Shown here piece by piece: positions 11,979 through 61,601 of a stretch of DNA of 64,000 nucleotides. Location: the sequence record MK327941.1, one strand, 5' to 3'. The notes under the pieces are model-generated. The model was not told the DNA's origin and ran no database searches. It was given only the letters and a program-made list of their open reading frames with translations. Within the stretch, counting starts at the first letter, position 1. Each line of letters opens with the position of its first letter. The translations under genes were made by a program, and so were the position numbers. This DNA comes from Escherichia phage vB_EcoM_G37-3.

Positions 11979-12006
11979 TTGACAATCTTGTCTGATAAGG
12001 TATAAT
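11979..12006 (+). promoter_or_regulatory. sigma70-type early promoter TTGACA-N16-TATAAT
   Basis: Consensus hexamers read in sequence; about 30 nt upstream of ATG 12036 with GGAGG SD. Confidence 0.6.
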
Positions 12007-40126: not shown

Positions 40127-41814
40127 ATGCAAGATATTAAATTCACTTTCTGAACTACTCCCATGTTCAAATTGAATGTAGCGATTCAATTTTATTAGAA
40201 ATGCGAGATTATTTTAGTTTTGAAGTCGAGGGAGCGCGGTTTCAAAAAAGATTTAAGTATGGTGGATGGGATGGGCGTATTCGTCTTTTAGATTACAACG
40301 GAAAGCTGCCAATCGGTCTAACTAAAACCGTGGGAATCTTCGCTAAAAATATGGGCTATAGCGTATGGGTAGATCCTCGCTTATTCGAAAAAGAACAAGT
40401 TACAGAAGAAGAAATTACAAAATGGTGTAATAACTTAGAATTATATTCCGGTGCTAACAGGATCACCCCTCATTGGTATCAATCAAAGGCCGTCTTTGAA
40501 GGTATTTCATCATAAACGCCGTATGTTAGTTTTGCCTACGTCCGCTGGTAAATCTGCGATTGCTTGTATGTTGTCTCGTTGGTACTTAGAGAATTACGAA
40601 GGGAAAGTGTTGATCATCGTTCCTACCACGTCGCTAGTGCTGCAAATGCGTGATGACTTTGTTGATTATCGCCAGTTTCCTTATGAAGCAATTCATACTA
40701 TCATGAGCGGTACTAGTAAACACGTAGGTGATCGCCTGATCGTTGTTAGTACGTGGCAATCTGCATGTAAACAACCTAGTGAGTGGTTCCAACAATTCGG
40801 GATGGTTATTGTTGACGAATGTCACAAGGCCACTGCTAAAACCTGCTAAACATCGTTACTGATATGGATCATTGTCAATTTAAGATCGGCATGACTGGTT
40901 CCCCTCGTGACGGGAAAGCTAACATGATGCAGTATGTCGGGCTTTTCGGTGATATTTCTAAGATCGTGAGTATTGACCGCCTGATGGAAGAAGGGCAGGT
41001 GACAAAACTGAAAATTAACTGTCTTTTCCTTCGTTATACCGATGAGGAATAGCGCGGTTAAGGGGCGAGAATATGCGGAAGAGATCAAGTACATTACATC
41101 TAACCCACGACGAAATAAGTTTGCTTGTAATTTGGCGCTAAAACTCGCTAAGAAGGGCGAAAACGTATTCCTGATGTTCCGCAACACTAAGCACTGAAAA
41201 TTAACTGTCTTTTCCTTCGTTATACCGATGAGGAATGTAGCGCGGTTAAGGGGCGAGAATATGCGGAAGAGATCAAGTACATTACATCTAACCCACGACG
41301 AAATAAGTTTGCTTGTAATTTGGCGCTAAAACTCGCTAAGAAGGGCGAAAACGTATTCCTGATGTTCCGCAACACTAAGCACGGAAAACTTATGTATGAT
41401 GCGTTACAGAAGGTACACGACAAGGTTTATTATATTGACGGTGGAGTTAAGACAGAAGAACGTGATGAATTTAAGAAATTAGCGGAAGGGGAAACCGGGA
41501 TCATTTGCGTTGCATCCTATGGTGTGTTCTCTACTGGTGTTTCCATCAAGAATTTGCATCATGTTATTTTCGGTCATCCAGTGAAGGAATCAACTATCGT
41601 TCGTCAGAGTATCGGTCGTGCATTGCGTAAACATGGTTCTAAGGATATTGCAACGGTCTGGGATCTTATAGATCATCTGGCGGTGAAGACAAAGAGCAAT
41701 AATGCTAAGAAACAGTTTAGCCACCTTAATTATGCTCTTAAACATGCGCTTGAAAGAATAAAAATTTACAACACCGATCGATTCGAATATGTCACGAAAA
41801 CAATCGAGATTTAA
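40127..41814 (+). pseudogene. uvsW: uvsW (RNA-DNA/DNA-DNA helicase) disrupted by at least three frameshifts and an internal tandem duplication
   Basis: Pieces MQDIK (40127), frame A to 40515, frame B to 40849, frame C 40840..41052, frame C 41191..41814; each aligns to consecutive segments of T4 UvsW as recalled (FSFE..RF..RFKYGGWDGRIRLLDYN, LPTSAGKS, DECH, SPRDGKANMMQYVG, HGSKDIATVWDLID). Confidence 0.75.
41007..41380 (+). repeat. perfect tandem duplication inside uvsW (copy 1 41007-41192, 186 bp; copy 2 41193-41380, 188 bp)
   Basis: Copies identical except a 2-bp (gt) deletion in copy 1 that creates TAG at 41050-41052. Confidence 0.85.
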
Positions 41815-50543: not shown

Positions 50544-51364
50544 TTAGTCACCTCACCGAAAATTGTAAATTGTCTACGATTCTCATCGCCGAAAGATTCT
50601 ACTACGTCGTTTACCTTGACGCAAGTCCCGCGCGGTAAAATTACTTCACATTCGCAAGGGTTCCATGCAATTGACCCAACAACAAAACCTTTATGATCTT
50701 TTACGTCAATTACCCATGATACATTACAAGAATGTTGCATCTTTCCGGTCATTGATTCATATCGATTCTCACAATAAAGGCTAGTGCTGTTTGATAGCCA
50801 TCCTCCAAAGATGATTGGTGTCATGCTGGTAGATACAAAGTTTTTAAAGGTAAACTCCTTATCTTCAATGATACGCTCTATTGTCTGAATGTCAAGATGT
50901 TGACCGCGATAAAGAGTACCGTTTAACTTTTCGGTTTTATCCATGACGCAATCCATCAAATCGACAATCTCTGATATCTCATCGGTCATGTCTTCTTCCC
51001 CTAAGAGAGCACCATTTACCCATTCGTATTGTTCAGACACATAATCACAGATTGCATTATATTCTGCTGGGGTTATGTTGTTATGTTTGTAATGTTTGAA
51101 TACATTATCTCCAAAGTCTTCGGAGTGTACTTCATACATCACATTAATGATTTTCTTGACAAATCCATAATCTTGTGTCTCACGCTCAAGGAAGCGGATA
51201 ACCTTCACATAATCATCAAAGTTAATCTGATCGCTAATCATCTCAGTGATCATGTAACCATTAATCCCCTCAATGTCATATGTTTCAATATAATTGTCCA
51301 TACGTTCCATCATTGATTCGCGTGATTCTTCCGAAAGACGAAAATCCTGTAATTTCTTGAACAT
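50540..51364 (-). CDS. mono-ADP-ribosyltransferase, Alt/Mod-family paralogue
   Basis: 274 aa; R-S-E triad motifs LYRGQ, FVSTSMTP, CECEVILPRG. Confidence 0.65.
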   Translation of the reverse strand: MFKKLQDFRLSEESRESMMERMDNYIETYDIEGINGYMITEMISDQINFDDYVKVIRFLERETQDYGFVKKIINVMYEVHSEDFGDNVFKHYKHNNITPAEYNAICDYVSEQYEWVNGALLGEEDMTDEISEIVDLMDCVMDKTEKLNGTLYRGQHLDIQTIERIIEDKEFTFKNFVSTSMTPIIFGGWLSNSTSLYCENRYESMTGKMQHSCNVSWVIDVKDHKGFVVGSIAWNPCECEVILPRGTCVKVNDVVESFGDENRRQFTIFGEVTK

Positions 51365-51442
51365 TTTAAACCTCCCATATAACAGAAAACGGGGCTAGTA
51401 TAAAACTAGTCCCCGTTTGAGTCAACCATTATTTCTTAAAAA

Positions 51443-53494: not shown

Positions 53495-53562
53495 TTTATA
53501 TCCTCTAGTTGATAACCTATAAACCTATATTTATGAAAACGGGGCTTAACGCCCCCTTTTTA

Positions 53563-53775
53563 TTATAATGCACCATCGAGCAATTGCTCTAAGGTGTATC
53601 CTGAATAGTCTTTTTCAATCAGGATATATTTTCCTACTCGTTTAATACAACCGCGCATTTCAACATATTCTGCGTAGTTGATGGTGCGAGTTGTTCCATC
53701 TTCTAGCAAAGCAGTACCGATTTCGTTAATGCGGTCATAAGTTACGTAGGTAATGATGATTTCGATGTTAGCCAT
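53563..53775 (-). CDS. hypothetical protein (70 aa from ATG 53775)
   Basis: Track ORF 53563..53841; start moved to internal ATG with AAGGAG SD because the upstream codons overlap the promoter element. Confidence 0.5.
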   Translation of the reverse strand: MANIEIIITYVTYDRINEIGTALLEDGTTRTINYAEYVEMRGCIKRVGKYILIEKDYSGYTLEQLLDGAL

Positions 53776-53809
53776 TTGATACTCCTTAGTAGTTCGTTTC
53801 GGTATGTGT

Positions 53810-53838
53810 ATTATAGGGGATCGATGATCCCCTGTCAA
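53810..53838 (-). promoter_or_regulatory. PeSL-like early promoter cassette: TTGACA, 17-nt palindromic spacer (ggggatc..gatcccc), TATAAT, conserved leader
   Basis: Reverse complement gives TTGACAggggatcatcgatccccTATAAT; A-tract upstream. Confidence 0.6.
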
Positions 53839-53846
53839 CAACTTTT

Positions 53847-54365
53847 TTAGTTATTTTTTAATTGCTCATCTTGCAATAGGGCAATCACATGCTGGCGATG
53901 TTCTTCCGATTGAGGCACACCGAAAAAGTTTGTTTTGTAGAAATACTCTAATCGGTCTTCTCGTGTGCTCTCTTCCATCATGATCGCGGGTAGTCCGAGA
54001 TTTCGGAAACGTCGCTTTTCTGCTGGCGTAAAATCACTGTAATACAACATAGAATCATCATTACCAGCAATGCTAAACTCATCTTTCATAAAGGAGAATA
54101 TTGCGTTTAAACGCTGTTTACCGTCCACGATTTCGATCTCATAGCGAGAGCCATCATCAATCTTAGCCATTGCGATAGCACCAACCGGAAAATCATTAAT
54201 CAGGTTTTCGATAAACATACGTTTGTTTTCGGTGTCCCATACCAAAGGACGCTGATAATCTGGGTTCATGTTGATATATCCATCTTCTAACCACGCCTCA
54301 TAAACAGAGATGACAAAGTTTTTAGTATTGGTATAGTAACGGCGTTTAGGCGTTAAACGGTTCAT
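53847..54365 (-). CDS. DUF262 / ParB-like nucleotide-binding domain protein
   Basis: Start at ATG 54365 (AGGAG SD); DYQRPLVWD..FIENL and VDGKQRLNAI match DUF262 hallmarks (QR, DGQQR-like). Confidence 0.55.
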   Translation of the reverse strand: MNRLTPKRRYYTNTKNFVISVYEAWLEDGYINMNPDYQRPLVWDTENKRMFIENLINDFPVGAIAMAKIDDGSRYEIEIVDGKQRLNAIFSFMKDEFSIAGNDDSMLYYSDFTPAEKRRFRNLGLPAIMMEESTREDRLEYFYKTNFFGVPQSEEHRQHVIALLQDEQLKNN

Positions 54366-54366
54366 G

Positions 54367-54699
54367 TTATAGTCTCCTGAATGGATCATCACGTAAATCA
54401 ATATCTTTTAAGAACTCATCCCATGAATGGCGGATATTGTTCTTAATTCTCCAGATAAGCGCAGGGATTGAACGCTCTCCCATCTGGAAGTATGGATCAT
54501 ATGATCCGTATGCCCAATATGCTACTACAATTCCACAATCAGAGCAATAGTATTCTATTTCACTTGCTGGCGACCAAAGTCCATCAATATGATCGGTGAT
54601 CTTGCTTTCGATGTTATGGCTATGACAATCAGGGCAACGGATGCAATGACCTTGTTTATCGTAATTTGACGTTAGCGAATACTTAAACAATCTCATCAT
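54367..54699 (-). CDS. hypothetical zinc-ribbon protein
   Basis: 110 aa; CIRCPDC..H and CSDCG Cys pairs; coupled to flanking genes. Confidence 0.55.
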   Translation of the reverse strand: MMRLFKYSLTSNYDKQGHCIRCPDCHSHNIESKITDHIDGLWSPASEIEYYCSDCGIVVAYWAYGSYDPYFQMGERSIPALIWRIKNNIRHSWDEFLKDIDLRDDPFRRL

Positions 54700-55412
54700 A
54701 GATCCTTATTGGCTTCAAATACTGCCTTTGCGAATCCTCGCGGGGTAAGTGACCTTATAGTCTTTGTTTTCGTTCCTTTCCCGCCTAGCTTAGAATGCTG
54801 TTTACTGTACCCTTTATTAATCTGCAAAGGTTTCTTTTCTGGCATCATAAAGCCTTGTCCGGTCCATAAGCAAGTCTTTTTCGGGTACATATCACGGGCG
54901 GCAATATACTCAGGAAACGTAGGATGCTTATCATCTTCCGGCAAATAACCGCCATATTCCCACGGATGAAACATATAATCAGGCTTACGCCACATGCTAG
55001 AGATAACGCTTACAGGATTCTCTATCATGTAGGGAACTCCTAGCCATTCACCCAAATAAGCGGTTATTTTAGCTGCCCGTACATCATGAACTTGAATCAA
55101 TGGTCCTTGTTCTCGTTTCTTTCGTTCAAAGTGCGCAGCGCCACTAACAGCTAAATTGGTGCACGGTGGGAATGCAAAGATAATATCCGGTTTCCCCCAT
55201 TCAAGGTCCATTGCTCTTTCCAGCCAGTTCAAATCAATCCATGTGTTTACATAGGTAATGTTTGGATGTTCAAATCTGGTATTATACTTTTTGTATGTGC
55301 CGTGGTCGCCATCATCAGCATTAAAGCAGATCACCTTATGACCTGCTTTAGCCCATTCTAGCCCCATTATCCCCGATCCGTCAAAGTTACAGAATATTAA
55401 TTTTTGTTTCAT
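54696..55412 (-). CDS. compact DNA (cytosine-5)-methyltransferase-like protein
   Basis: 238 aa; motif I-like FDGSGIMG, PC motif FAFPPCTNLAVSG, ENV-like YMIENPV, C-terminal RSLTPRGFAKAV. Confidence 0.55.
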   Translation of the reverse strand: MKQKLIFCNFDGSGIMGLEWAKAGHKVICFNADDGDHGTYKKYNTRFEHPNITYVNTWIDLNWLERAMDLEWGKPDIIFAFPPCTNLAVSGAAHFERKKREQGPLIQVHDVRAAKITAYLGEWLGVPYMIENPVSVISSMWRKPDYMFHPWEYGGYLPEDDKHPTFPEYIAARDMYPKKTCLWTGQGFMMPEKKPLQINKGYSKQHSKLGGKGTKTKTIRSLTPRGFAKAVFEANKDL

Positions 55413-55654
55413 ATACGCCCCTTTAATCCAACACAGATTTTAGAAGGTTCTTTGCCGTGCCACATTAAGTAAAGTCCGTTAATGCGGCCTTGTTTTGTAT
55501 ATGATTCTTTTCTGATCTTCTTATAGTGTCGTGTTTCCTCAGCCGATTGTTTAGAATACCAATCATAAAGGAAGATGAACAAAGGCCACCCATTAGCGGC
55601 CTTAATGCAGTTATTCAAAAATTCCTTATTGCGTTTAATTAATTTTCTTTTCAC
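55409..55654 (-). CDS. hypothetical protein (81 aa)
   Basis: ORF track; coupled overlaps. Confidence 0.5.
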   Translation of the reverse strand: MKRKLIKRNKEFLNNCIKAANGWPLFIFLYDWYSKQSAEETRHYKKIRKESYTKQGRINGLYLMWHGKEPSKICVGLKGRI

Positions 55655-55902
55655 GCTGCCCCCATTGGTTTGATAGTAACAGAATCTAAAAGACCTTTGT
55701 TAGCCAGTTCGCGGCAAGTTTTCAGATCCGCAACTTCCCAACCAGCCGCAATCAGGTTATCAATCAGGCTGTTAGCAACTTCTTCGCTCATGAAAGAGCA
55801 CTGTTTGCCGATGGTGTAGCGTACACGCTGTAATTTCAGTTTACGGAAGCCTTTAACGTTCAGGTCTTTAGCGATTTTCTTTGCGGTTTCGATGTTAGCC
55901 AT
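55651..55902 (-). CDS. hypothetical protein (83 aa)
   Basis: ORF track; GGAG SD; first gene after promoter cassette. Confidence 0.55.
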   Translation of the reverse strand: MANIETAKKIAKDLNVKGFRKLKLQRVRYTIGKQCSFMSEEVANSLIDNLIAAGWEVADLKTCRELANKGLLDSVTIKPMGAA

Positions 55903-55942
55903 TGTTTGATTCTCCTAAGTGGTATCTCGTCTTGATGGTTGT

Positions 55943-55971
55943 ATTGTAGGGGAGTTATCCTCCCCTGTCAA
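55943..55971 (-). promoter_or_regulatory. PeSL-like early promoter cassette (TTGACA, ggggag..ctcccc spacer, TACAAT)
   Basis: Read in sequence. Confidence 0.55.
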
Positions 55972-55985
55972 CACTTTTTATAAAA

Positions 55986-56153
55986 TTATTTGTTAATTTC
56001 TGGTGCGTTGCTAGGATAGTAACCTTCTTTAACACCCAGATATTTTGCAACCATCCCTACAATCTTCTGTGCTACTACAATGTCAAATTTCAGATAATCT
56101 TCGCCGTGGGTTTCAATGATATATGCTTCACATGCTGCTTTAGTCTCGAACAT
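55986..56153 (-). CDS. hypothetical small protein (55 aa), copy 1 of a duplicated gene
   Basis: MFETKAACEAYIIETHGEDYLKFDIVVAQKIVGMVAKYLGVKEGYYPSNAPEINK; about 89% identical to 59246..59413. Confidence 0.55.
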   Translation of the reverse strand: MFETKAACEAYIIETHGEDYLKFDIVVAQKIVGMVAKYLGVKEGYYPSNAPEINK

Positions 56154-56186
56154 TTTGATTCTCCTATTTCGTTTCGTTATGTGTGT

Positions 56187-56215
56187 ATTATAGGGGATCT
56201 CCCGATCCCCGTCAA
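56187..56215 (-). promoter_or_regulatory. PeSL-like early promoter cassette (TTGACG, ggggatc..gatcccc spacer, TATAAT)
   Basis: Read in sequence. Confidence 0.55.
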
Positions 56216-56229
56216 CAACTTTTTTAAAA

Positions 56230-56511
56230 TTATTCGTGATTAGTTTCGATGTTGTGCATTTTGCACCAGTTCAGCCAATCACCCAGATCCTGATAGTTAA
56301 TGCTTTTATCTGCTGCCATCGTTTTTGTCTTGATACCCATATGTGCGTTATGAGTAAGCATTTTTACAGTGAACTCAATTTTATCACCTTTAGCTTTAAC
56401 ATCAACCAGTTTGGTCCACTGGCTACCAGCGCCGCGAATGTTCATACCAACGATGTTTCCGATGTATGCTTCTTTGTTTTTCAGGATTTCGGTTGCTTTG
56501 ATGAATTTCAT
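56230..56511 (-). CDS. hypothetical protein (93 aa)
   Basis: ORF track; SD. Confidence 0.55.
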   Translation of the reverse strand: MKFIKATEILKNKEAYIGNIVGMNIRGAGSQWTKLVDVKAKGDKIEFTVKMLTHNAHMGIKTKTMAADKSINYQDLGDWLNWCKMHNIETNHE

Positions 56512-56544
56512 TTTTGATTCTCCAGTTCGTTTCGGTATGTGTGT

Positions 56545-56573
56545 ATTATGCTATGTTCTTACTTTGGTGTCAA
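56545..56573 (-). promoter_or_regulatory. early promoter cassette without palindrome (TTGACA-N17-CATAAT)
   Basis: Read in sequence; same leader as the PeSL-like elements. Confidence 0.5.
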
Positions 56574-56581
56574 CAACTTTT

Positions 56582-56851
56582 TTAGATATTTTCAGAAATA
56601 AATTTTAAAACTTGACGTAAATGTTTCTCATCTTTGATAGTCGCCGGAAGTTCTTCTTTTACTTCCTGTGCAAGATAGATATTTCCGTTCCAAGTGAAAG
56701 ATCCGTCTTCGTTTACGCGATAGCTGAACATCCACTCGCAATCATTTTCGATTTCATATACACACAGAAGGGTGTAATCGTTAAAGCTATTGATTTCAAG
56801 GTCGAAGCCGTGACGTTTTGCAAAGTTGGTAGTGGTTTTAGTCAGAGCCAT
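56582..56851 (-). CDS. hypothetical protein (89 aa)
   Basis: ORF track; SD. Confidence 0.55.
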   Translation of the reverse strand: MALTKTTTNFAKRHGFDLEINSFNDYTLLCVYEIENDCEWMFSYRVNEDGSFTWNGNIYLAQEVKEELPATIKDEKHLRQVLKFISENI

Positions 56852-56891
56852 TGTTTGATTCTCCTAAATGGTATCTCGTTTCGATGTGTGT

Positions 56892-56920
56892 ATTATGCTA
56901 TAGGCCGGATCTGGTGTCAA
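56892..56920 (-). promoter_or_regulatory. early promoter cassette (TTGACA-N17-CATAAT)
   Basis: Read in sequence. Confidence 0.5.
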
Positions 56921-56935
56921 TGCCTTTTTTAAAAA

Positions 56936-56955
56936 AGCCGACACTAAGGTCGGCT
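56936..56955 (-). terminator. rho-independent terminator after reverse gene 56963..57271
   Basis: agccgac-ctta-gtcggct followed by U-run on reverse strand. Confidence 0.55.
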
Positions 56956-56962
56956 AATAAAA

Positions 56963-57271
56963 TCATTTAGACAAGTAATCATTCTGTGCAATACGGTCGG
57001 CGTATGCTGGTGTTATGTCAATCGCCAGCACTTTAACGCGTGCTTTCTTGCGACCTGGGTTTTCTCGTAACCAGTGCTCATGACCGTGAACATTTTTATA
57101 CTTTGATGCTTCTTCAAATGTACGGATCGGACCTGGGTAATCAGCGTAAAGGATCTCTAGGTCTTCGGTGATGTAAAAATATACATCGTAATTACTGTTC
57201 TCTAGTTTAAGCAGAGAGTTGCGAAATTGTGGTAAATTCTCGCGGGTAAATTCAACTACAAGATTTTTCAT
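56963..57271 (-). CDS. hypothetical protein, paralogue family A (YxYITED..HGHEHW..VLAIDI)
   Basis: 102 aa ORF track; shared motifs with six other ORFs. Confidence 0.55.
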   Translation of the reverse strand: MKNLVVEFTRENLPQFRNSLLKLENSNYDVYFYITEDLEILYADYPGPIRTFEEASKYKNVHGHEHWLRENPGRKKARVKVLAIDITPAYADRIAQNDYLSK

Positions 57272-57296
57272 AGTGATATCCTCATTCAGATAGATT

Positions 57297-57316
57297 AAAA
57301 GGGGGCTTAACGCCCC
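57297..57316 (-). terminator. hairpin plus U-run after reverse gene 57322..57609
   Basis: Reverse strand ggggcg-ttaa-gccccc then TTTT. Confidence 0.45.
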
Positions 57317-57321
57317 GTATA

Positions 57322-57609
57322 TTAAAACAGTCCTTCCTGTACACCGTAGTAGAGTTCATCGCTGATAATTTCATTAATGCGACGGTGTGCATATTCCTGA
57401 TTTGCGAAGTTATCAGCAAGTTCTACTTTAGTTTCGCCGTCATGAGTCCATTTAGTGATAACTTTACCATCTGCAAATTTGAAGTTGAACTCTTTAGCTA
57501 CTGCATCGCGTACCAGACGTGCGAACTTGTTGTTACGGATTGCATTATCGGTTTCGTGTGCAGCGTGAGCGAATTTGTTAACTTTCAGAGTGATAGTAAT
57601 GTATGCCAT
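57322..57609 (-). CDS. hypothetical protein, paralogue family B
   Basis: 95 aa; shares N..A.R..V.KA.AKEFN.K with 60851..61162. Confidence 0.55.
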   Translation of the reverse strand: MAYITITLKVNKFAHAAHETDNAIRNNKFARLVRDAVAKEFNFKFADGKVITKWTHDGETKVELADNFANQEYAHRRINEIISDELYYGVQEGLF

Positions 57610-57655
57610 AATTTGATTCTCCTAGTTAGAAAGTGTATCTCGTTTCGATGGGGAT

Positions 57656-57684
57656 ATTATGCTATATCCCCGATCCGGTGTCAA
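57656..57684 (-). promoter_or_regulatory. PeSL-like early promoter cassette
   Basis: TTGACA, 17-nt spacer, CATAAT on reverse strand. Confidence 0.5.
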
Positions 57685-57690
57685 CACTTT

Positions 57691-57969
57691 TTATAAAATA
57701 ATTTTTTGATATTTTTCTATGATGTTCGTGTAAGTCACATCAACCGCTAGCACCGTTGCTTCGAATCCACCGTTTAGCCAATGGCTATGATCATGATCGT
57801 GAAAGAAACCTAGACCAGTACGAAGACCTTCTTTATATTCTGCGCGTACATTCAGTTTGTCGTCGATAAACAGATAAAACCATGAATTTTTACTAGGATT
57901 GATGATACAACCTTTCAGATTAGGGAGAATATCACGACTAAGAATAAACTTATCACCTACTTTGAGCAT
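57691..57969 (-). CDS. hypothetical protein, paralogue family A
   Basis: Start at internal ATG 57969 (GAGGAAA SD); FYLFIDDKLNV..HDHDHSHW..VLAVDV. Confidence 0.5.
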   Translation of the reverse strand: MLKVGDKFILSRDILPNLKGCIINPSKNSWFYLFIDDKLNVRAEYKEGLRTGLGFFHDHDHSHWLNGGFEATVLAVDVTYTNIIEKYQKIIL

Positions 57970-57983
57970 AATATTTTCCTCAC

Positions 57984-58291
57984 TTATAAAGTTTGACCGT
58001 TGTTTTTCGCGTAATGCTGAATGCGTGCTTGATCTGCTTCCGCTGGTGATAGATTCCATGCGATCACTACAACTTCTGACGCATCATGATCATTATCACT
58101 TACCCAATGATTATGATTCATACAATTGTTTGCTATCGCGTGAGCAAATGATCTCATTACCGGAGACGTATAATCATAGTAACGGATTTTCAGATTTTCA
58201 TCAACGTACAAGTAGATCGTATACGGCTTATATTCAGTAACCAGTAACAGACAGTTACGCAATTCTGGGAAAATCTTTTTAGTTAATTTCA
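57984..58291 (-). CDS. hypothetical protein, paralogue family A
   Basis: Start at internal ATG 58291 (GAGGAT SD); YLYVDENLKI..NHNHW..VVIAWNL. Confidence 0.5.
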
Positions 58292-58293
58292 TT

Positions 58294-58512
58294 TTATAAT
58301 CCTCGGTCGCGGCTATAGTACACGGTACGCCATACAATTTCATGTTTCGTGTCGCTCCAGCACACGATCTCATTTACTCTTAAATCTTTGTTATCAACAA
58401 AAGATGAACATTGTGACGCTTCTTTCATCATTTTATCTGCTGTTTTCTCATCAAATACAGCACAGATTTCTTTATACACTCGATAATCTTTGAATTGACT
58501 CTGGATACTCAT
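58294..58512 (-). CDS. hypothetical protein, paralogue family C
   Basis: Start at ATG 58512; FKDYRVYKEI..ADKMMKEASQCSSF. Confidence 0.45.
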   Translation of the reverse strand: MSIQSQFKDYRVYKEICAVFDEKTADKMMKEASQCSSFVDNKDLRVNEIVCWSDTKHEIVWRTVYYSRDRGL

Positions 58513-58514
58513 AA

Positions 58515-58730
58515 TTAACACCAATCAAGAGTTTTTGAGAAAACCTCTATCCATTGTTGAGTATATGCGGTTTCTTTCCATGATACAATACCAGTAGAAT
58601 AATGGTTTTTGTTTCCAGAAAAGGACGGGCATTTTGATGCATCTTCCATCATCTTTTCGGCGAACTCTGGTTCGTATACCCGCAAAATCTGTTGATATGC
58701 TTTGTATTCTTTAAATTTGCTCATAATCAT
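58515..58730 (-). CDS. hypothetical protein, paralogue family C
   Basis: ORF track 71 aa; FKEYKAYQQI..AEKMMEDASKCPSF. Confidence 0.5.
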   Translation of the reverse strand: MIMSKFKEYKAYQQILRVYEPEFAEKMMEDASKCPSFSGNKNHYSTGIVSWKETAYTQQWIEVFSKTLDWC

Positions 58731-58989
58731 TCACTACCTTATCAGCTTCTTTTGTTGTTTTTACATCAACTGCGATAACCCGTAAAGGTTCGTCATGGTT
58801 CCACCAATGATCGTGAATATCGGCTTGTGATTTATCACCAAAGGAATCACGAATATCATTTTTACATTTATAGCTAATGTGACCGTCATAGTCAACATAA
58901 AGGTAATTATCGAAAATCGGCGTTTTTAAGATCATACCGAAAAATCTTTCTTTGTGTGTCTTATCCAGTGTTGCAGTAATTCGCATCAT
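58711..58989 (-). CDS. hypothetical protein, paralogue family A
   Basis: 92 aa; NYLYVDYDG..DIHDHWW..RVIAVDV. Confidence 0.55.
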   Translation of the reverse strand: MMRITATLDKTHKERFFGMILKTPIFDNYLYVDYDGHISYKCKNDIRDSFGDKSQADIHDHWWNHDEPLRVIAVDVKTTKEADKVVNDYEQI

Positions 58990-59001
58990 AATATATTCCT
59001 C

Positions 59002-59181
59002 TTAGAAAGGGATGGTCATTTCTTGAGCTTGTACATTCTCGTTAGGATTAAACTTCATCCAACCGATATTGTCTACCAGCATATGTACATTTTTATCATA
59101 TCCTACGTGAGTAGTCAACACTAAATGTGCTTTACCTTCAACGATGATTTCCATGTACTTCTGAACTTCGATAGCTTTCAT
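59002..59181 (-). CDS. hypothetical small protein (59 aa)
   Basis: GGAGAATC SD before ATG 59181; MKAIEVQKYMEIIVEGKAHLVL...; below track cutoff. Confidence 0.45.
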   Translation of the reverse strand: MKAIEVQKYMEIIVEGKAHLVLTTHVGYDKNVHMLVDNIGWMKFNPNENVQAQEMTIPF

Positions 59182-59213
59182 TTTGATTCTCCGTTTGTTG
59201 TCTTGATGGGAGT

Positions 59214-59242
59214 ATCTTACTACTCCCTTTAATCATTGTCAA
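59214..59242 (-). promoter_or_regulatory. PeSL-like early promoter cassette (TTGACA, gggagta..tactccc spacer, TAAGAT)
   Basis: Read in sequence. Confidence 0.5.
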
Positions 59243-59245
59243 CGA

Positions 59246-59413
59246 TTATTTGTTAATTTCCGGTGCGTTGCTTGGATAGTAGCCTTCTTTAACACCCAGA
59301 TATTTTGCAACCATTCCGGTGATCTTCTGTGCTACTACGATATCGAATTTCAGGTAGTCTTCACCGTGGTTTGCTACAATGTATGCTTCGCATTCTGCTT
59401 TAGTCTGGAACAT
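59246..59413 (-). CDS. hypothetical small protein (55 aa), copy 2 of duplicated gene
   Basis: MFQTKAECEAYIVANHGEDYLKFDIVVAQKITGMVAKYLGVKEGYYPSNAPEINK. Confidence 0.55.
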   Translation of the reverse strand: MFQTKAECEAYIVANHGEDYLKFDIVVAQKITGMVAKYLGVKEGYYPSNAPEINK

Positions 59414-59447
59414 TTTTGATTCTCCTATATCTCGTTGGTATGTGTGT

Positions 59448-59476
59448 AGTATAGGGGATCACCGATCCCCTGTCAA
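59448..59476 (-). promoter_or_regulatory. PeSL-like early promoter cassette (TTGACA, ggggatc..gatcccc spacer, TATACT)
   Basis: Read in sequence. Confidence 0.55.
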
Positions 59477-59484
59477 CAACTTTT

Positions 59485-59775
59485 TTATTCTTTATACGCA
59501 TATTTCATAAATTTGTCTGCTACTTCATCGGCATGTTCCGATTCTACGCCGGATTCGAGAACAATAGCAAGGTCGGTTTCGTCGTGACCTTCGTACCAGT
59601 GATTATGTGTGTCGTTTGAATCAATATAGAATTTATCACCTTCGTAAGTTCGAGCAAATACATCTAAATTCTCGTCGATGTAAAAGATCCAATCTTCATA
59701 AAGAATAACCGTATTAGCAAGGTTCTTATTACCTTCAACGAAAGGTTCGGCTACAAACAAATCAGTACGTTCCAT
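59485..59775 (-). CDS. hypothetical protein, paralogue family A
   Basis: 96 aa; WIFYIDENLDV..THNHWYEGHDE. Confidence 0.55.
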   Translation of the reverse strand: MERTDLFVAEPFVEGNKNLANTVILYEDWIFYIDENLDVFARTYEGDKFYIDSNDTHNHWYEGHDETDLAIVLESGVESEHADEVADKFMKYAYKE

Positions 59776-59790
59776 AGTATTTTCCTCAAA

Positions 59791-59952
59791 TTAAGAAAAA
59801 GCGTTGAAAACACCCGCCAACACAACTACGTTAGCGATAAGGCTTAAAAAGCATTTCTTGATACTTTCAGTGCAGATACCAATACTGGCAGGAATTACAC
59901 CGATCACGATAGCATAAAGAATAACTGCGATTTCTTGAAATACACCGTTCAT
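59791..59952 (-). CDS. hypothetical small membrane protein (53 aa)
   Basis: GAGGATAAT SD before ATG 59952; hydrophobic MNGVFQEIAVILYAIVIGVIPASIGI... Confidence 0.4.
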   Translation of the reverse strand: MNGVFQEIAVILYAIVIGVIPASIGICTESIKKCFLSLIANVVVLAGVFNAFS

Positions 59953-60000
59953 AATATTATCCTCAATTTGTGGGAGAGTATTACCCTCCCGATTATTGTT

Positions 60001-60029
60001 ATACTACATTACGCAAAATGGCGTGTCAA
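60001..60029 (-). promoter_or_regulatory. early promoter TTGACA-N17-TAGTAT overlapping the 3' end of the upstream ORF
   Basis: Read in sequence; followed by hairpin gggag..ctccc in leader. Confidence 0.45.
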
Positions 60030-60311
60030 TACTTCTTTTGCTGTTCCGCTAAGATTCTCGATCTCTCCTGGCATAACATCAACCGCCAGAACTTCTACAA
60101 CATCCTCTGATCCTAACCAGTGAGTATGACCTTTGTAGAACTTGATATCCCATTTATCGCTATCGCTAGCCCACCACACATCACCGTCTATAAAGTTGAT
60201 GTAAAGCACACTACGACACATTGAATTAGTTACTTTCAATACTGCGCCTTTCATCTCTTCCACGGTATGGTCTTCCATTTTGAAGACCTCGCCTACCTTA
60301 ACTTTTGCCAT
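60009..60311 (-). CDS. hypothetical protein, paralogue family A
   Basis: Start at ATG 60311 (MAKVKVGEVF..); YINFIDGDVWW..GHTHW..VLAVDV. Confidence 0.5.
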   Translation of the reverse strand: MAKVKVGEVFKMEDHTVEEMKGAVLKVTNSMCRSVLYINFIDGDVWWASDSDKWDIKFYKGHTHWLGSEDVVEVLAVDVMPGEIENLSGTAKEVLTRHFA

Positions 60312-60312
60312 G

Positions 60313-60579
60313 TTACATGCTCCGAATATGTTTAGATGCATCTTCCAGTTCGTCGATAGTGACACTGTGAGCCAGTAAGTGTACTGGTTGTGGTTCTTCA
60401 CCTTCCATAGTATTGATCAGATGACCGTTTCCTGGGTGGAATGTATCGTTGCCGTTCCAAATAGCATACACATCATCTTCTGTTACGTAGATAATAAGTC
60501 CAATCGGTGATTCTGGTAATTGAAAAATTTTACCCACTGCATCTTTGCGATTGTTTACGATATCTTTTACTGTCTTCAT
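60313..60579 (-). CDS. hypothetical protein, distant family A member
   Basis: 88 aa ORF track; LIIYVTEDDVYAIW. Confidence 0.5.
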   Translation of the reverse strand: MKTVKDIVNNRKDAVGKIFQLPESPIGLIIYVTEDDVYAIWNGNDTFHPGNGHLINTMEGEEPQPVHLLAHSVTIDELEDASKHIRSM

Positions 60580-60598
60580 TTAGTTACCTCTCGTTAAA

Positions 60599-60778
60599 TT
60601 ACATCACAATCACGCCAGCCGTTGAAAGTTGATGTTTCAACTGAGCATTTTCTGCTACTGTCAAATCAATGATTTCTTGTGACGCTGCAATCATATAGCC
60701 ATTGGTGATATTGTTTTGCATCAGTTCAATGGTTTCTTCGTTGTAGCGGATTTTAGCGATGATTTCGTTGAAGTTCAT
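60599..60778 (-). CDS. hypothetical small protein (59 aa)
   Basis: GGAGAATCAAAC leader-SD before ATG 60778; MNFNEIIAKIRYNEETIELMQ...; below track cutoff. Confidence 0.45.
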   Translation of the reverse strand: MNFNEIIAKIRYNEETIELMQNNITNGYMIAASQEIIDLTVAENAQLKHQLSTAGVIVM

Positions 60779-60812
60779 GTTTGATTCTCCTAGTTCGTTT
60801 CGGTATGTGTGT

Positions 60813-60842
60813 ATTATAGGGGAGTTTAACCTCCCTTGTCAA
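60813..60842 (-). promoter_or_regulatory. PeSL-like early promoter cassette (TTGACA, ggggag..ctccc spacer, TATAAT)
   Basis: Read in sequence. Confidence 0.55.
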
Positions 60843-60850
60843 CAACTTTT

Positions 60851-61162
60851 TTAAAGTTTTTCCATGATAACGGTCATAATTACATCTTCTGCGCGGGCGG
60901 TCAGATTATCAGCGTCAGCATGTGGGCGGTTGGTTGTTACAGAGATAACACCGTTGCGCACTGGTTTGATATTGATATCAAGATGATCCGCGAAACGTTC
61001 GCCAGTTACAGAATGAATTTTGGTGTTAAATTCTTTTGCCAGTGCCTTGCGAACTTCACGAATCAGGATAGCGTTTTTCAGTTGGTTCTCCGCGCTCATG
61101 GTCTTCTGGGTGTTCATGGTTCCGTCGAAGTCAATCATTGGCAGCGTTACGATGTATTTCAT
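60851..61162 (-). CDS. hypothetical protein, paralogue family B
   Basis: 103 aa ORF track. Confidence 0.55.
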   Translation of the reverse strand: MKYIVTLPMIDFDGTMNTQKTMSAENQLKNAILIREVRKALAKEFNTKIHSVTGERFADHLDINIKPVRNGVISVTTNRPHADADNLTARAEDVIMTVIMEKL

Positions 61163-61207
61163 TTTTGATTCTCCGTTTAAGAAAGTGTGTTTCGTTTTGA
61201 TGTGTGT

Positions 61208-61236
61208 AGTATAGGGGATACGTGATCCCCTGTCAA
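61208..61236 (-). promoter_or_regulatory. PeSL-like early promoter cassette (TTGACA, ggggata..gatcccc spacer, TATACT)
   Basis: Read in sequence. Confidence 0.55.
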
Positions 61237-61249
61237 CAACTTTTTTGAA

Positions 61250-61594
61250 TTATTTTTTCATGAGCTTAATGGCTTCTTCCATAGCCAGCACATTTCGATA
61301 GTTAGGGTATCGTGTTAGATCGTCATACATTCGCTTAAGGGTGGAAACTTCCTCAAACTCTGGGTTTTCTAGATACAGTTGAACAAATTGTTTCTCTACC
61401 ATCTCGGCTTTTAGCTTGTCTGCTTGTTCCTGTTCATATGATTTCGTTGGACCCAACACCAACAAAATGATAAAGGTGATCAACGGGCTAATGATCAATG
61501 ATAGGATAACATAACCGATAACGCTACGGTTTAAACGGCTTGCGTACATGCCTACCAGGAAAACAAAAAGGATATAGATAAACAGAAAGAACAT
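61250..61594 (-). CDS. hypothetical membrane protein (two predicted TM helices)
   Basis: 114 aa; hydrophobic N-terminal half; AAGGAG SD. Confidence 0.55.
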   Translation of the reverse strand: MFFLFIYILFVFLVGMYASRLNRSVIGYVILSLIISPLITFIILLVLGPTKSYEQEQADKLKAEMVEKQFVQLYLENPEFEEVSTLKRMYDDLTRYPNYRNVLAMEEAIKLMKK

Positions 61595-61601
61595 ATAATG
61601 G

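Follow-up and report, generated by a model that had tools for sequence, protein, structure and literature searches.

An array of PeSL-type units between alt and the DNA ligase gene of Escherichia phage vB_EcoM_G37-3

Organisation of the region

A window of 64,000 nucleotides from Escherichia phage vB_EcoM_G37-3 (MK327941.1) was analysed. An array of 11 minus-strand units was found in the interval from alt to ORF212/DNA ligase, each measuring 80-96 bp from A-tract to ATG (Table 1). The order within the unit is A-tract, TTGACA, a spacer of 17-18 nt, -10 box and leader; the stop codon of the upstream ORF sits inside the A-tract and the Shine-Dalgarno sequence (SD) inside the leader. All eleven recurring units of the original prediction were thereby located and their coordinates fixed. 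The length of about 70 bp given for them fits the stretch from -35 to ATG rather than the whole unit.

Table 1. Features of the array and its surroundings (-35, first base; promoter, -35 hexamer-spacer length-(-10) hexamer)
Feature	Position	Strand	-35	ATG	Promoter	Hairpin	Remarks
PeSL unit upstream of ORF210 homologue	61160..61252	-	61236	61162	TTGACA-17-TATACT	61213-61231, spacer	leader GGAGAATCAAA
PeSL unit driving ORF209, ORF208.1, ORF208	60776..60858	-	60842	60778	TTGACA-18-TATAAT	60820-60835, spacer	
Diverged PeSL unit driving 53-aa hydrophobic ORF and ORF206	59950..60045	-	60029	59952	TTGACA-17-TAGTAT	59972-59990, downstream of -10	differing leader TGAGGATAATATT; profile E 5e-8
PeSL unit upstream of ORF205	59411..59492	-	59476	59413	TTGACA-17-TATACT	59453-59471, spacer	
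PeSL unit driving ORF204 to ORF199 (6 genes)	59179..59258	-	59242	59181	TTGACA-17-TAAGAT	59208-59227, overlaps -10	
PeSL unit driving ORF198 and ORF197	57607..57700	-	57684	57609	TTGACA-17-CATAAT	57650-57671, overlaps -10	
PeSL unit upstream of ORF194	56849..56955	-	56920	56851	TTGACA-17-CATAAT	56936-56955, just upstream of -35	canonical terminator hairpin (terminator scan)
PeSL-type promoter and leader upstream of ORF193	56509..56589	-	56573	56511			
PeSL unit upstream of ORF191	56151..56231	-	56215	56153	TTGACG-17-TATAAT	56193-56210	
PeSL unit driving ORF190, ORF189.1, ORF189, ORF188, ORF187	55900..55987	-	55971	55902	TTGACA-17-TACAAT	55948-55966, spacer	
Chimeric PeSL unit upstream of ORF185	53773..53854	-	53838	53775		53815-53833, spacer	
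Twelfth, more diverged PeSL-like unit just downstream of alt	51362..51440	-			TTGACT-17-TATACT	51391-51414, overlaps -10, then GTTTTCTGTT	leader GGGAGGTTTAAAATG; beyond reported range
24 small ORFs (53-238 aa) in 11 transcription units behind 11 promoters	53563..61162	-					
PeSL+ORF191 cassette	55985..56226	-					paralogous copy of PeSL+ORF205 cassette at 59245-59487
Stand-alone terminator-like hairpin after ORF198	57302..57316	-				GGGGCGTTAAGCCCC, then T-run	

A profile built from the units, the consensus that had been proposed as a check, strongly recovered only these 11 in the 64-kb window (E 5e-8 to 5e-19). When sigma-70-like sites were ranked over 13 kb (51-64 kb), the top 11 were the 11 units, all on the coding strand. 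Near-consensus promoters (at least 11/12 hexamer matches) numbered 19 in the window versus 2.3 in shuffles, and 9 of them fall in the 7.5-kb array. The leader end before the ATG, GGAGAATCAAA, is exact in 9 units and has one mismatch in another. With at most one mismatch it was found as 10 minus-strand copies in the array, the window total being 11 versus 1.9 expected. The distance from this 11-mer to the ATG varies by 0-2 extra nt.

Between one and six ORFs follow each promoter, where one or a few small ORFs had been predicted directly behind each unit. The product of ORF189 is a DNA methyltransferase. In a Pfam scan no match was obtained for 22 of the 26 region ORFs, and in PHROGs, against which ten ORFs (ORF185-ORF197) were scanned, nine belong to families of unknown function, which leaves the suggested hotspot of host-takeover or anti-defence genes unsupported. 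The ORF191 and ORF205 cassettes share about 85% nucleotide and 89% amino acid identity, and their homology begins at the A-tract and ends exactly at the stop codon.

A G/C hairpin was detected in 10 of the 11 units. Nine are perfect, versus 0.13 expected (P~6e-17), and the tenth, GGGAGGGTAATACTCTCCC in unit 59950..60045, contains one G.T pair. The GGGG...CCCC stems are kept and the loops are free to vary. Six hairpins occupy the spacer, two overlap the -10 box, one lies downstream of it and hence in the 5'UTR, and one is the upstream canonical terminator. A hairpin was sought in unit 56509..56589 and none was found (dG -4.2, z +1.9), making it the sole hairpin-less unit among the 11. The palindrome described as usual in a 17-nt spacer therefore applies to six of the 11 units, one of which spans 18 nt. 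Its predicted lack held at 56545, but the units at 56892 and 60001 carry hairpins outside the spacer. Such variation had been taken for decay; it matches instead the published PeSL subclasses, four of five of which are represented in the window.

Canonical intrinsic-terminator criteria apply to just one unit hairpin (56936-56955). Spacer hairpins are followed 3' by UAUAAU or UAUACU instead of a U-run, so that the actual effect may be attenuation or protection of RNA 3' ends rather than termination. A hairpin identical to the stand-alone one after ORF198 is present at 53541-53555, after ORF185.

Correspondence with the elements of RB49 and phi1

The window comes from a Krischvirus, its match to genomes of that genus being 93-97%. 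The region runs collinearly with phi1 and RB49 from ORF185 to ORF212; this is HPR3, the locus on which the PeSL work of PMC2839356 was done. Identity between the window units and the RB49/phi1 elements was 88-100%: unit 61160..61252 is identical to RB49 PeSL211/210 at 93/93 positions, unit 57607..57700 is 100% identical to its RB49 counterpart, and unit 59411..59492 shares 96-97% with PeSL206/205. The PeSL211/210 hairpin was terminator-tested and blocks transcription, and the PeSL206/205 promoter is strong, at about 13,000 Miller units (PMC2839356). In the GenBank record of GEC-3S these promoters are already annotated, and the site orthologous to the twelfth unit is annotated as a promoter too. 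The PeSL identity proposed in the original prediction is supported by these matches; the units are orthologues of the published RB49/phi1 elements and very probably PeSLs (promoter-early stem-loops), regulatory cassettes of composite build from RB49-type (Krischvirus) phages. These were originally described in RB49 and phi1 by Arbiol, Comeau, Kutateladze, Adamia and Krisch (2010, Genome Biol Evol 2:140; PMC2839356) and the work was extended by Comeau et al. 2014 (PMC4122927). The array is a correct but already known finding, in the same alt-ligase variable region as the first PeSL description; it is ordinary because the repeats are published PeSLs in the locus where these were described and tested.

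Genus, locus (HPR3, ORF185-212, alt to gene 30), composite anatomy, hairpin subclasses, cassette-indel association and crossover zone are all shared with the RB49/phi1 PeSLs. The differences are at strain level only: this phage is without the ORF186, ORF192 and ORF195/196 cassettes, it carries ORF191, ORF208.1, ORF210 and ORF211, and a small hydrophobic ORF replaces phi1 ORF207. The closest database genome, FL15 (96.7% identity), differs by the ORF186 cassette.

Assembly artefacts, named beforehand as what would refute the array, and sequencing artefacts were rejected as its source. Orthologous units occupy the same positions in 58-63 independently sequenced genomes, the cassette itself being present in 58 such Krischvirus records. 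The divergence of the units (mean pairwise identity 63%) and the intact ORF adjoining each also oppose this reading.

Cassette gain and loss

The proposed search for one cassette beside different ORFs in relatives was positive. Comparison with 11 relatives revealed 11 structural differences. In five (ORF186, ORF191, ORF195/196, ORF210 and a 1.67-kb deletion in phiS) both ends lie in PeSLs, which share 40-106 bp of overlap homology with each other; three further differences have one end at a PeSL edge, and in three (ORF189.1, ORF208.1 and the JSE swap at 57726-58509) PeSLs play no part. The 5' edge of unit 56151..56231 is the place that holds ORF192 in RB49 and G2494 and a different ORF in JSE. 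The unit 53773..53854 is a clean chimera: its 5' half is the same as in phi1 PeSL187/186, its 3' half the same as in phi1 PeSL186/185, and the ORF186 cassette is deleted. The crossover took place between the -10 box and the SD, the zone in which the published mini-circle junctions also fall (PMC2839356).

The units could be just strong early promoters, kept alike by selection for promoter and translation-initiation strength, with indels at units reflecting only the viability of intergenic breakpoints. In favour of this, PeSLs fill 11 of about 26 gene junctions, events with at least one end in a PeSL are not significantly in excess over a gene-junction null (P=0.47), and the three PeSL-free events fit as well. 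Nevertheless, both-ended events are enriched over random gene-junction breakpoints (P=0.03, or 0.007 when ORF192 is also counted), and the likeness between units reaches well beyond the hexamers, to GTTG of the A-tract, the discriminator ACACACAT and the leader. Together with the five homologous junctions, the chimera and the PeSL-junction mini-circles sequenced in RB49 and phi1 (PMC2839356), this makes a plain promoter role without any special part in recombination quite improbable. It is even harder to credit that the G4-loop-C4 hairpin serves as the site of a dedicated site- or structure-specific recombinase, integron/attC-like, with movement targeted by the enzyme and not driven by homology. 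That possibility was raised by the authors of PMC2839356, one RB49 crossover lies inside the hairpin loop, and the conserved stems with variable loops would suit it. Against it, crossover zones vary among the leader (-10 to SD), the A/T-rich 5' edge (56223-56234, 61257) and the hairpin loop; the hairpin position differs between units, one of which has none; and none of the 26 region ORFs bears an integrase or recombinase domain, those found being only an HNH and a GmrSD_N domain. Homology-driven recombination between units is the reading that we infer.

Proposed working and relation to known systems

With its A-rich upstream part, each unit would act as a very strong early promoter for host sigma-70 and be active immediately after infection. 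The hairpin, transcribed from the upstream cassette, would attenuate or terminate read-through, and each cassette would thus be insulated. The first ORF would receive a short, unstructured, conserved leader with an SD. Since copies of the same stretch of about 80-95 bp follow one another at intervals of a few hundred bases, all in one orientation, they may also offer portable homology for phage general recombination. Exchange between units would delete, insert, duplicate or swap whole PeSL-plus-ORF cassettes, leaving neighbouring genes unharmed, which would explain the differing gene content of the region among close relatives. The strength of the promoters, the blocking of transcription by the hairpin and the formation of mini-circles come from the literature on identical or near-identical elements (PMC2839356), and these activities presumably hold in this phage too.

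Besides these functions, the leader 11-mer, GGAGAAUCAAA, might be a target of the phage RegB endoribonuclease and ribosomal protein S1, which is possible but rather doubtful. This likeness of the invariant 11-mer would be the sole addition to the published PeSL picture. In T4 the site for RegB with S1 reads GGAGRAYARAA; it lies in early intergenic RNA that is unstructured and is usually the SD (PMC1702504). The candidate matches 10 of its 11 positions and likewise lies, predicted unpaired, at the SD of immediate-early first cistrons; it is invariant in nine units although the distance to the ATG varies, internal cistrons have other SDs, and the 11-mer also stands at the head of cassettes in a further variable region of RB49. 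RB49 encodes regB, whose own leader reads GGAUAAUAAAA; the SD there was reported to be cleaved in vivo (PMC3014915). However, the lone mismatch is a C at position 8, among the most A-biased positions, and the RNA of T4 gene 1, where positions 8 and 10 are both C, is almost resistant (PMC1702504). The demonstrated RB49 site in the regB leader also differs from the candidate. Conservation of the 11-mer could simply stem from shared ancestry of the repeat copies or from gene conversion among them, and regB lies outside the window, its presence in this phage being expected from relatives only. If real, such a site would provide each cassette with a built-in switch, by which the mRNA of the first cistron is inactivated shortly after infection.

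T4 early promoters with the PeSL-like elements of the T-even internal-protein (IP) loci, and the PeSLs of PST/T4 and nt-1/KVP40, likewise combine an early promoter with a hairpin, border small variable genes and mark the sites of indels. They are analogues and not homologues: they share no sequence with the Krischvirus units, the -35 is TTTACW or TTGYVH and the stems are weaker and A/T-rich in the T4/T-even, PST/T4 and nt-1/KVP40 elements, and the PeSL sequence family of the window was found in Krischvirus only. Integron (attC) cassettes and lambdoid 'morons' are similarly self-contained, promoter-equipped single-gene cassettes gained and lost in a variable region, with circular intermediates reported. 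Unlike integrons, the array has no integrase, no attC/attI architecture and variable crossover points, so that exchange looks homology-driven. Unlike in morons, the flanking regulatory sequence of PeSLs stays conserved, and exchange is carried by this very sequence.

Anatomy of the repeated units

The region 53500-61600 was read and every TTGAC in it was indexed. All eleven units of the promoter-early stem-loop (PeSL) array set out in the original prediction were present, on the minus strand, with one order of parts: an A-rich tract, TTGACA, a spacer, the -10 hexamer, a C/A-rich leader and GGAGAATCAAA, followed after 0-2 nt by the ATG of an ORF. The units are 80-96 bp long from A-tract to ATG, and their pairwise identity averages 63% (range 43%-83%). 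A TAAAAAAGTTG-type tract lies directly 5' of TTGACA in nine units, and the preceding ORF has its stop codon embedded in it. The spacer is 17 nt in all units but one (18 nt), and the -10 hexamer is TATAAT, TATACT, CATAAT, TACAAT, TAAGAT or TAGTAT. All eleven promoters score 10-12 out of 12 at the hexamers, and the best eleven sigma-70-type matches in 51-64 kb are these same units, all on the coding strand. Window-wide, 19 near-consensus promoters were counted against 2.3 in shuffles, 9 of the 19 being inside the 7.5-kb array. A profile HMM built from the units recovered only those eleven in the 64-kb window (E 5e-8 to 5e-19). The junction of GGAGAATCAAA, 0-2 nt and ATG is exact in nine units and has one mismatch in another, while the Shine-Dalgarno (SD) sequence of unit 59950-60045 differs from GGAGAATCAAA; at one mismatch or fewer, ten minus-strand occurrences of GGAGAATCAAA were found in the array region. 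An assembly or sequencing artefact was ruled out, the cassette being present in 58-63 independent genomes.

A hairpin made of a G-run, a loop and a C-run was detected in 10 of the 11 units. Nine are perfect (5-8 bp, at least 4 G:C pairs), compared with 0.13 expected from dinucleotide shuffles (P about 6e-17), and the tenth, in unit 59950-60045, includes a single G.T pair in its 8-bp stem. Most lie in the spacer. The hairpin of the unit with its -35 at 60029 falls in the 5'UTR since it is downstream of the -10. Three units had been described as lacking the palindrome; this held for one, with its -35 at 56573, whereas the other two carry hairpins elsewhere in the unit. In a canonical terminator scan, the upstream hairpin in the A/T-rich region was the only one among the eleven units followed by a T-run. 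The spacer and -10 hairpins lead into TATAAT or TATACT, not into a U-run, and so do not have the form of canonical intrinsic terminators. Two stand-alone terminators passed the scan; they are promoterless and consist of an identical 15-nt hairpin, GGGGCGTTAAGCCCC, and a T-run.

Among the hairpin variants of 12 genomes the stems are kept and the loops vary freely, with one compensated stem pair, T:A to G:C (GGGGAT/ATCCCC vs GGGGAG/CTCCCC). The internal non-Watson-Crick stem pairs of these genomes comprised about three independent G.T and zero A.C pairs, tallied by eye because extension into the flanks had distorted the automated tally. This bias is suggestive of a structure acting at the level of the sense-strand RNA, the events being too few to claim it.

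Outside the range originally reported there is a twelfth PeSL-like unit, more diverged than the others, which the unit profile did not recover. Its hairpin, GGGGACTAG...CTAGCCCC, overlaps the -10, and the T-rich run GTTTTCTGTT comes after it; the leader of the unit deviates (GGGAGGTTTAAAATG). Sigma-70 promoters with a 12/12 consensus were also observed at four sites beyond the array. A role as Dam sites was considered for the GATC present in many spacer palindromes and was rejected, as the units are not enriched (9 vs 5.5 expected, P=0.11). Across the window there was no depletion of GATC (374 observed, 353 expected). Scanning the complete window against Rfam with gathering thresholds gave no matches.

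Cassette exchange among relatives

The window was compared with 11 relatives (phi1, FL15, GEC-3S, RB49, PHB13, Brandy, SFHK24, JK32, G2494, phiS and JSE) by chained blastn HSPs, one region being sampled. Eleven distinct structural differences were found, eight of which touch a PeSL. Five are PeSL-bounded at both ends, with an HSP overlap of 40-106 bp, which is the signature of an exchange between homologous units leaving one behind. The check for the same cassette beside different ORFs in relatives was positive. The ORF192 site is occupied differently in JSE. At the ORF207 site the window has a strongly hydrophobic 53-aa ORF unrelated to ORF207 of phi1 and RB49, and the swap is bounded by the PeSL leader ATG and the ribosome-binding site of the next gene. 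ORF208.1 and ORF189.1 are present in some relatives and absent from others; since their junctions fall precisely at gene boundaries and are without a PeSL, a second, non-PeSL route of gain and loss operates in the array region.

In a three-way alignment, unit 53773-53854 proved to be a chimera. Its 5' part (the end of ORF187, A-tract, -35 and palindromic spacer) is that of phi1 PeSL187/186, and its 3' part (leader and ORF185) is that of phi1 PeSL186/185. The crossover lies between the -10 and the SD, in sequence common to both elements, the same zone in which a crossover was reported for the mini-circle 192H. The PeSL+ORF191 and PeSL+ORF205 cassettes are paralogous and their 55-aa ORFs share 89% amino acid identity. 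Homology between them begins at the A-tract and ends precisely with the stop codon, the pattern that copying of an entire cassette would leave.

Breakpoint statistics call for caution, since a breakpoint has to be intergenic in any case to be viable. Under a null model in which breakpoints fall at random among the gene junctions (a PeSL lies at 11 of the 26), differences with one or both ends in a PeSL were not enriched (P=0.47), and those with both ends in PeSLs were (P=0.03, or 0.007 when ORF192, PeSL-flanked in RB49, is counted). The junction homology, together with the chimera, is stronger evidence than these statistics. Homology at the PeSL junctions also argues against the view that the units are conserved promoters only and play no part in recombination, which is disfavoured. 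An integron-like, site-specific cassette system is disfavoured too, because the crossovers occur at varying points (leader, A/T edge and hairpin loop) instead of a fixed one, the hairpin varies in position and is missing from one unit, and Pfam gave no recombinase domain in the 26 ORFs.

The published PeSL account is the best-supported account of the units in the window. According to it, a PeSL would act as an early promoter with an insulating hairpin and would provide portable homology for the general recombination machinery of the phage. A portable promoter and insulator that doubles as a recombination linker would allow single accessory genes to be gained, lost or duplicated with their neighbours intact, and PeSLs would represent a concrete mechanism for the modular evolution of large lytic phage genomes.

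Features of the array, of related sites and of the structural differences among relatives (window positions unless stated)
Feature	Position	Strand	Remarks
Spacer hairpin, 6 units	-35 at 61236, 60842, 59476, 56215, 55971, 53838	-	
Hairpin over -10, 2 units	-35 at 59242, 57684	-	
Hairpin 3' of -10, 1 unit	-35 at 60029	-	
Upstream hairpin in A/T-rich region, 1 unit	56936-56955	-	
Sole unit without hairpin	56509-56589	-	-35 at 56573
Twelfth, more diverged PeSL-like unit	51362-51440	-	TTGACT-17-TATACT; downstream of alt, upstream of ORF183 homologue
Hairpin of twelfth unit	51391-51414	-	
Stand-alone terminator	57302-57316	-	after ORF198
Stand-alone terminator	53541-53555	-	after ORF185
12/12 consensus promoters	11979, 39374	+	
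12/12 consensus promoters	37734, 37162	-	
ORF186 cassette, PeSL at both ends			absent in window
ORF191 cassette, PeSL at both ends			absent in Brandy and JK32
ORF195/196 block, PeSL at both ends			present in RB49, Brandy and JK32
ORF210 cassette, PeSL at both ends			absent in Brandy, JK32 and SFHK24
1.67-kb phiS deletion, PeSL at both ends			joins units 59411-59492 and 61160-61252
ORF192 site, one end at PeSL edge	56223-56234		ORF192 in RB49, G2494; different ORF in JSE
ORF207 swap, one end at PeSL edge			ends at ATG of unit 59950-60045
ORF207 replacement	59791-59952	-	
ORF211, one end at PeSL edge	61257		
ORF208.1, no PeSL involved	60313-60579	-	
ORF189.1, no PeSL involved	55409-55654	-	
JSE replacement, no PeSL involved	57726-58509		
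PeSL+ORF191 cassette	55985-56226	-	
PeSL+ORF205 cassette	59245-59487	-	
Operon with methyltransferase	53847-55412	-	
Paralogous ~90-100-aa family	56963-57271, 57691-57969, 57984-58292, 58711-58989, 60009-60311, possibly 59485-59775	-	
ORF201	58294-58512	-	
ORF202	58515-58724	-	
Tandem duplication	41007-41388	+ coordinates	
GGAGAATCAAA 11-mer copies	7663, 8614, 10171, 10616 within RB49 50000-75000	-	

A candidate RegB site in the leader

The invariant leader sequence GGAGAAUCAAA was considered as a possible RB49-type cleavage site for RegB, the phage endoribonuclease that acts with ribosomal protein S1. The PeSL would thus be a three-function and not a two-function element, a tentative reading that is held to be rather unlikely. 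In T4, the RegB/S1 target has the sequence GGAGRAYARAA; it is found between genes, in early RNA that is unstructured, and in most cases coincides with the SD. A target was defined as GGA(G/U) plus the A-rich heptamer RAYARAA, single-stranded and in an intergenic part of an early RNA. GGAGAAUCAAA agrees with the consensus at 10 of 11 positions and has a C at the remaining one, position 8, where A is strongly favoured. Most predicted folds leave the SD region unpaired, and GGAGAAUCAAA is kept as a block despite its varying distance to the ATG. Against a RegB site stand this mismatch and the gene 1 RNA of T4, which has C at positions 8 and 10 and is nearly resistant.

The GGAGAATCAAA leader is specific to first cistrons because the internal cistrons use other, GAGG-type ribosome-binding sites. 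The same 11-mer heads ORF113, 117, 124 and 125 in another variable region of RB49. The regB gene is annotated in RB49, in a part of the genome whose counterpart is outside the window, and its own leader is GGAUAAUAAAA, also given as GGATAATAAAATG. RB49 RegB was reported to be active and the SD of the regB leader to be cleaved in vivo. RegB is not mentioned in the PeSL papers. Separately, the leader of the promoter at 11979, GGAGGATAAATTATG, was seen to resemble the RegB/S1 consensus. If the leader were a RegB site, every shuffled ORFan would automatically gain immediate-early expression and then RegB shut-off of its first cistron. This would be a modest refinement and not a new kind of element.

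Gene content and comparison with published PeSLs

Behind the eleven promoters lie 24 small ORFs (53-238 aa), in groups of 1, 3, 2, 1, 6, 2, 1, 1, 1, 5 and 1 genes. Pfam gave no match for 22 of the 26 ORFs; the matches were ORF187 (GmrSD_N/DUF262 domain only, 4e-20), ORF188 (weak zinc ribbon), ORF212 (HNH) and one below threshold. PHROGs, covering ORF185-ORF197 only, assigned ORF189 to DNA methyltransferases and 9 of 10 ORFs to families of unknown function. Nothing specific was found in the literature on the function of the array ORFs or on an anti-defence role in RB49. The hotspot of host-takeover or anti-defence genes suggested in the original prediction was neither supported nor contradicted by these results.

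Several features of gene content were observed along the way. One operon of three genes encodes a 172-aa protein that consists solely of the N-terminal (DUF262/ParB-like) domain of GmrSD-type restriction enzymes, a small protein with a zinc ribbon, and a DNA methyltransferase, which has PPC and ENP motifs and is annotated Dcm in relatives. In a phage, such a truncated GmrSD domain might serve as a decoy or have a regulatory role. ORF197, 199, 200, 203, 208 and perhaps 206 form a paralogous family without a Pfam family, characterized by H-x-H-W and then a short hydrophobic strand, V-L-A-[VI]-D-[VI]. The adjacent ORF201 and ORF202 are paralogues as well (39% identity over 61 aa). In another small-ORF region there is a nearly perfect tandem duplication with a period of about 186-188 bp (151 nt at 99% and 44 nt at 100% identity).

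The array region matched 63 phage records, all RB49-like (Krischvirus), with FL15 as the best (96.7% over 100% of the query). A blastn search of the phage collection with 11-base words found the cassette in 58 Krischvirus records only and not outside this group. The array is collinear with ORF185-ORF212 of phi1 and RB49, that is, with their hyperplastic region HPR3, and is flanked by alt and by ORF212 and the gene 30 DNA ligase. In the GEC-3S record, the orthologous sites already bear promoter annotations with -35 and -10 signals. In annotation, the intergenic repeats should be labelled as early promoters/PeSLs, with the cassette boundaries marking accessory-gene starts and stops.

PeSLs were defined from phi1 and RB49 as composites that combine an A/T-rich region with the upstream stop, a sigma-70 promoter of consensus type, a poly-G/poly-C stem-loop that can take any of five positions, and the SD with the start codon (Arbiol et al. 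2010; PMC2839356). Each genome has about 50 of them, clustered upstream of ORFans in its hyperplastic regions. The experiments of that study used the HPR3 locus itself: promoter activity was tested on PeSL193/192 and PeSL206/205 and is reported for the latter, a transcription block by the hairpin in vivo was reported for PeSL211/210, and inverse PCR in RB49 and phi1 yielded mini-circles of the cassettes of ORF192 and ORF210. The RB49-type signature was later given as TTGACA-N17-TATAAT with a GN-loop-CN stem (Comeau et al. 2014). The element is already known, down to its locus, and the value of the present analysis is confirmatory; no new question is opened, because publications of 2010 and 2014 already covered element, locus and behaviour. 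The window adds one more clean example, in which one unit is chimeric, one cassette is duplicated, one site holds alternative ORFs and a twelfth unit has diverged.

All units lie on the coding strand, directly upstream of ORFans in the hyperplastic region, and the ORF210 cassette is present with both flanking units. Judged by sequence, the units in the window have every feature of a PeSL, and their wet-lab activities are presumed from the elements in the literature. The identification as PeSLs was borne out by the shared locus, the anatomy and an identity of 88-100% to the positional orthologues in RB49 and phi1. Unit 59411-59492 is 96-97% identical to PeSL206/205, and unit 61160-61252 is identical to RB49 PeSL211/210 at 93 of 93 positions.
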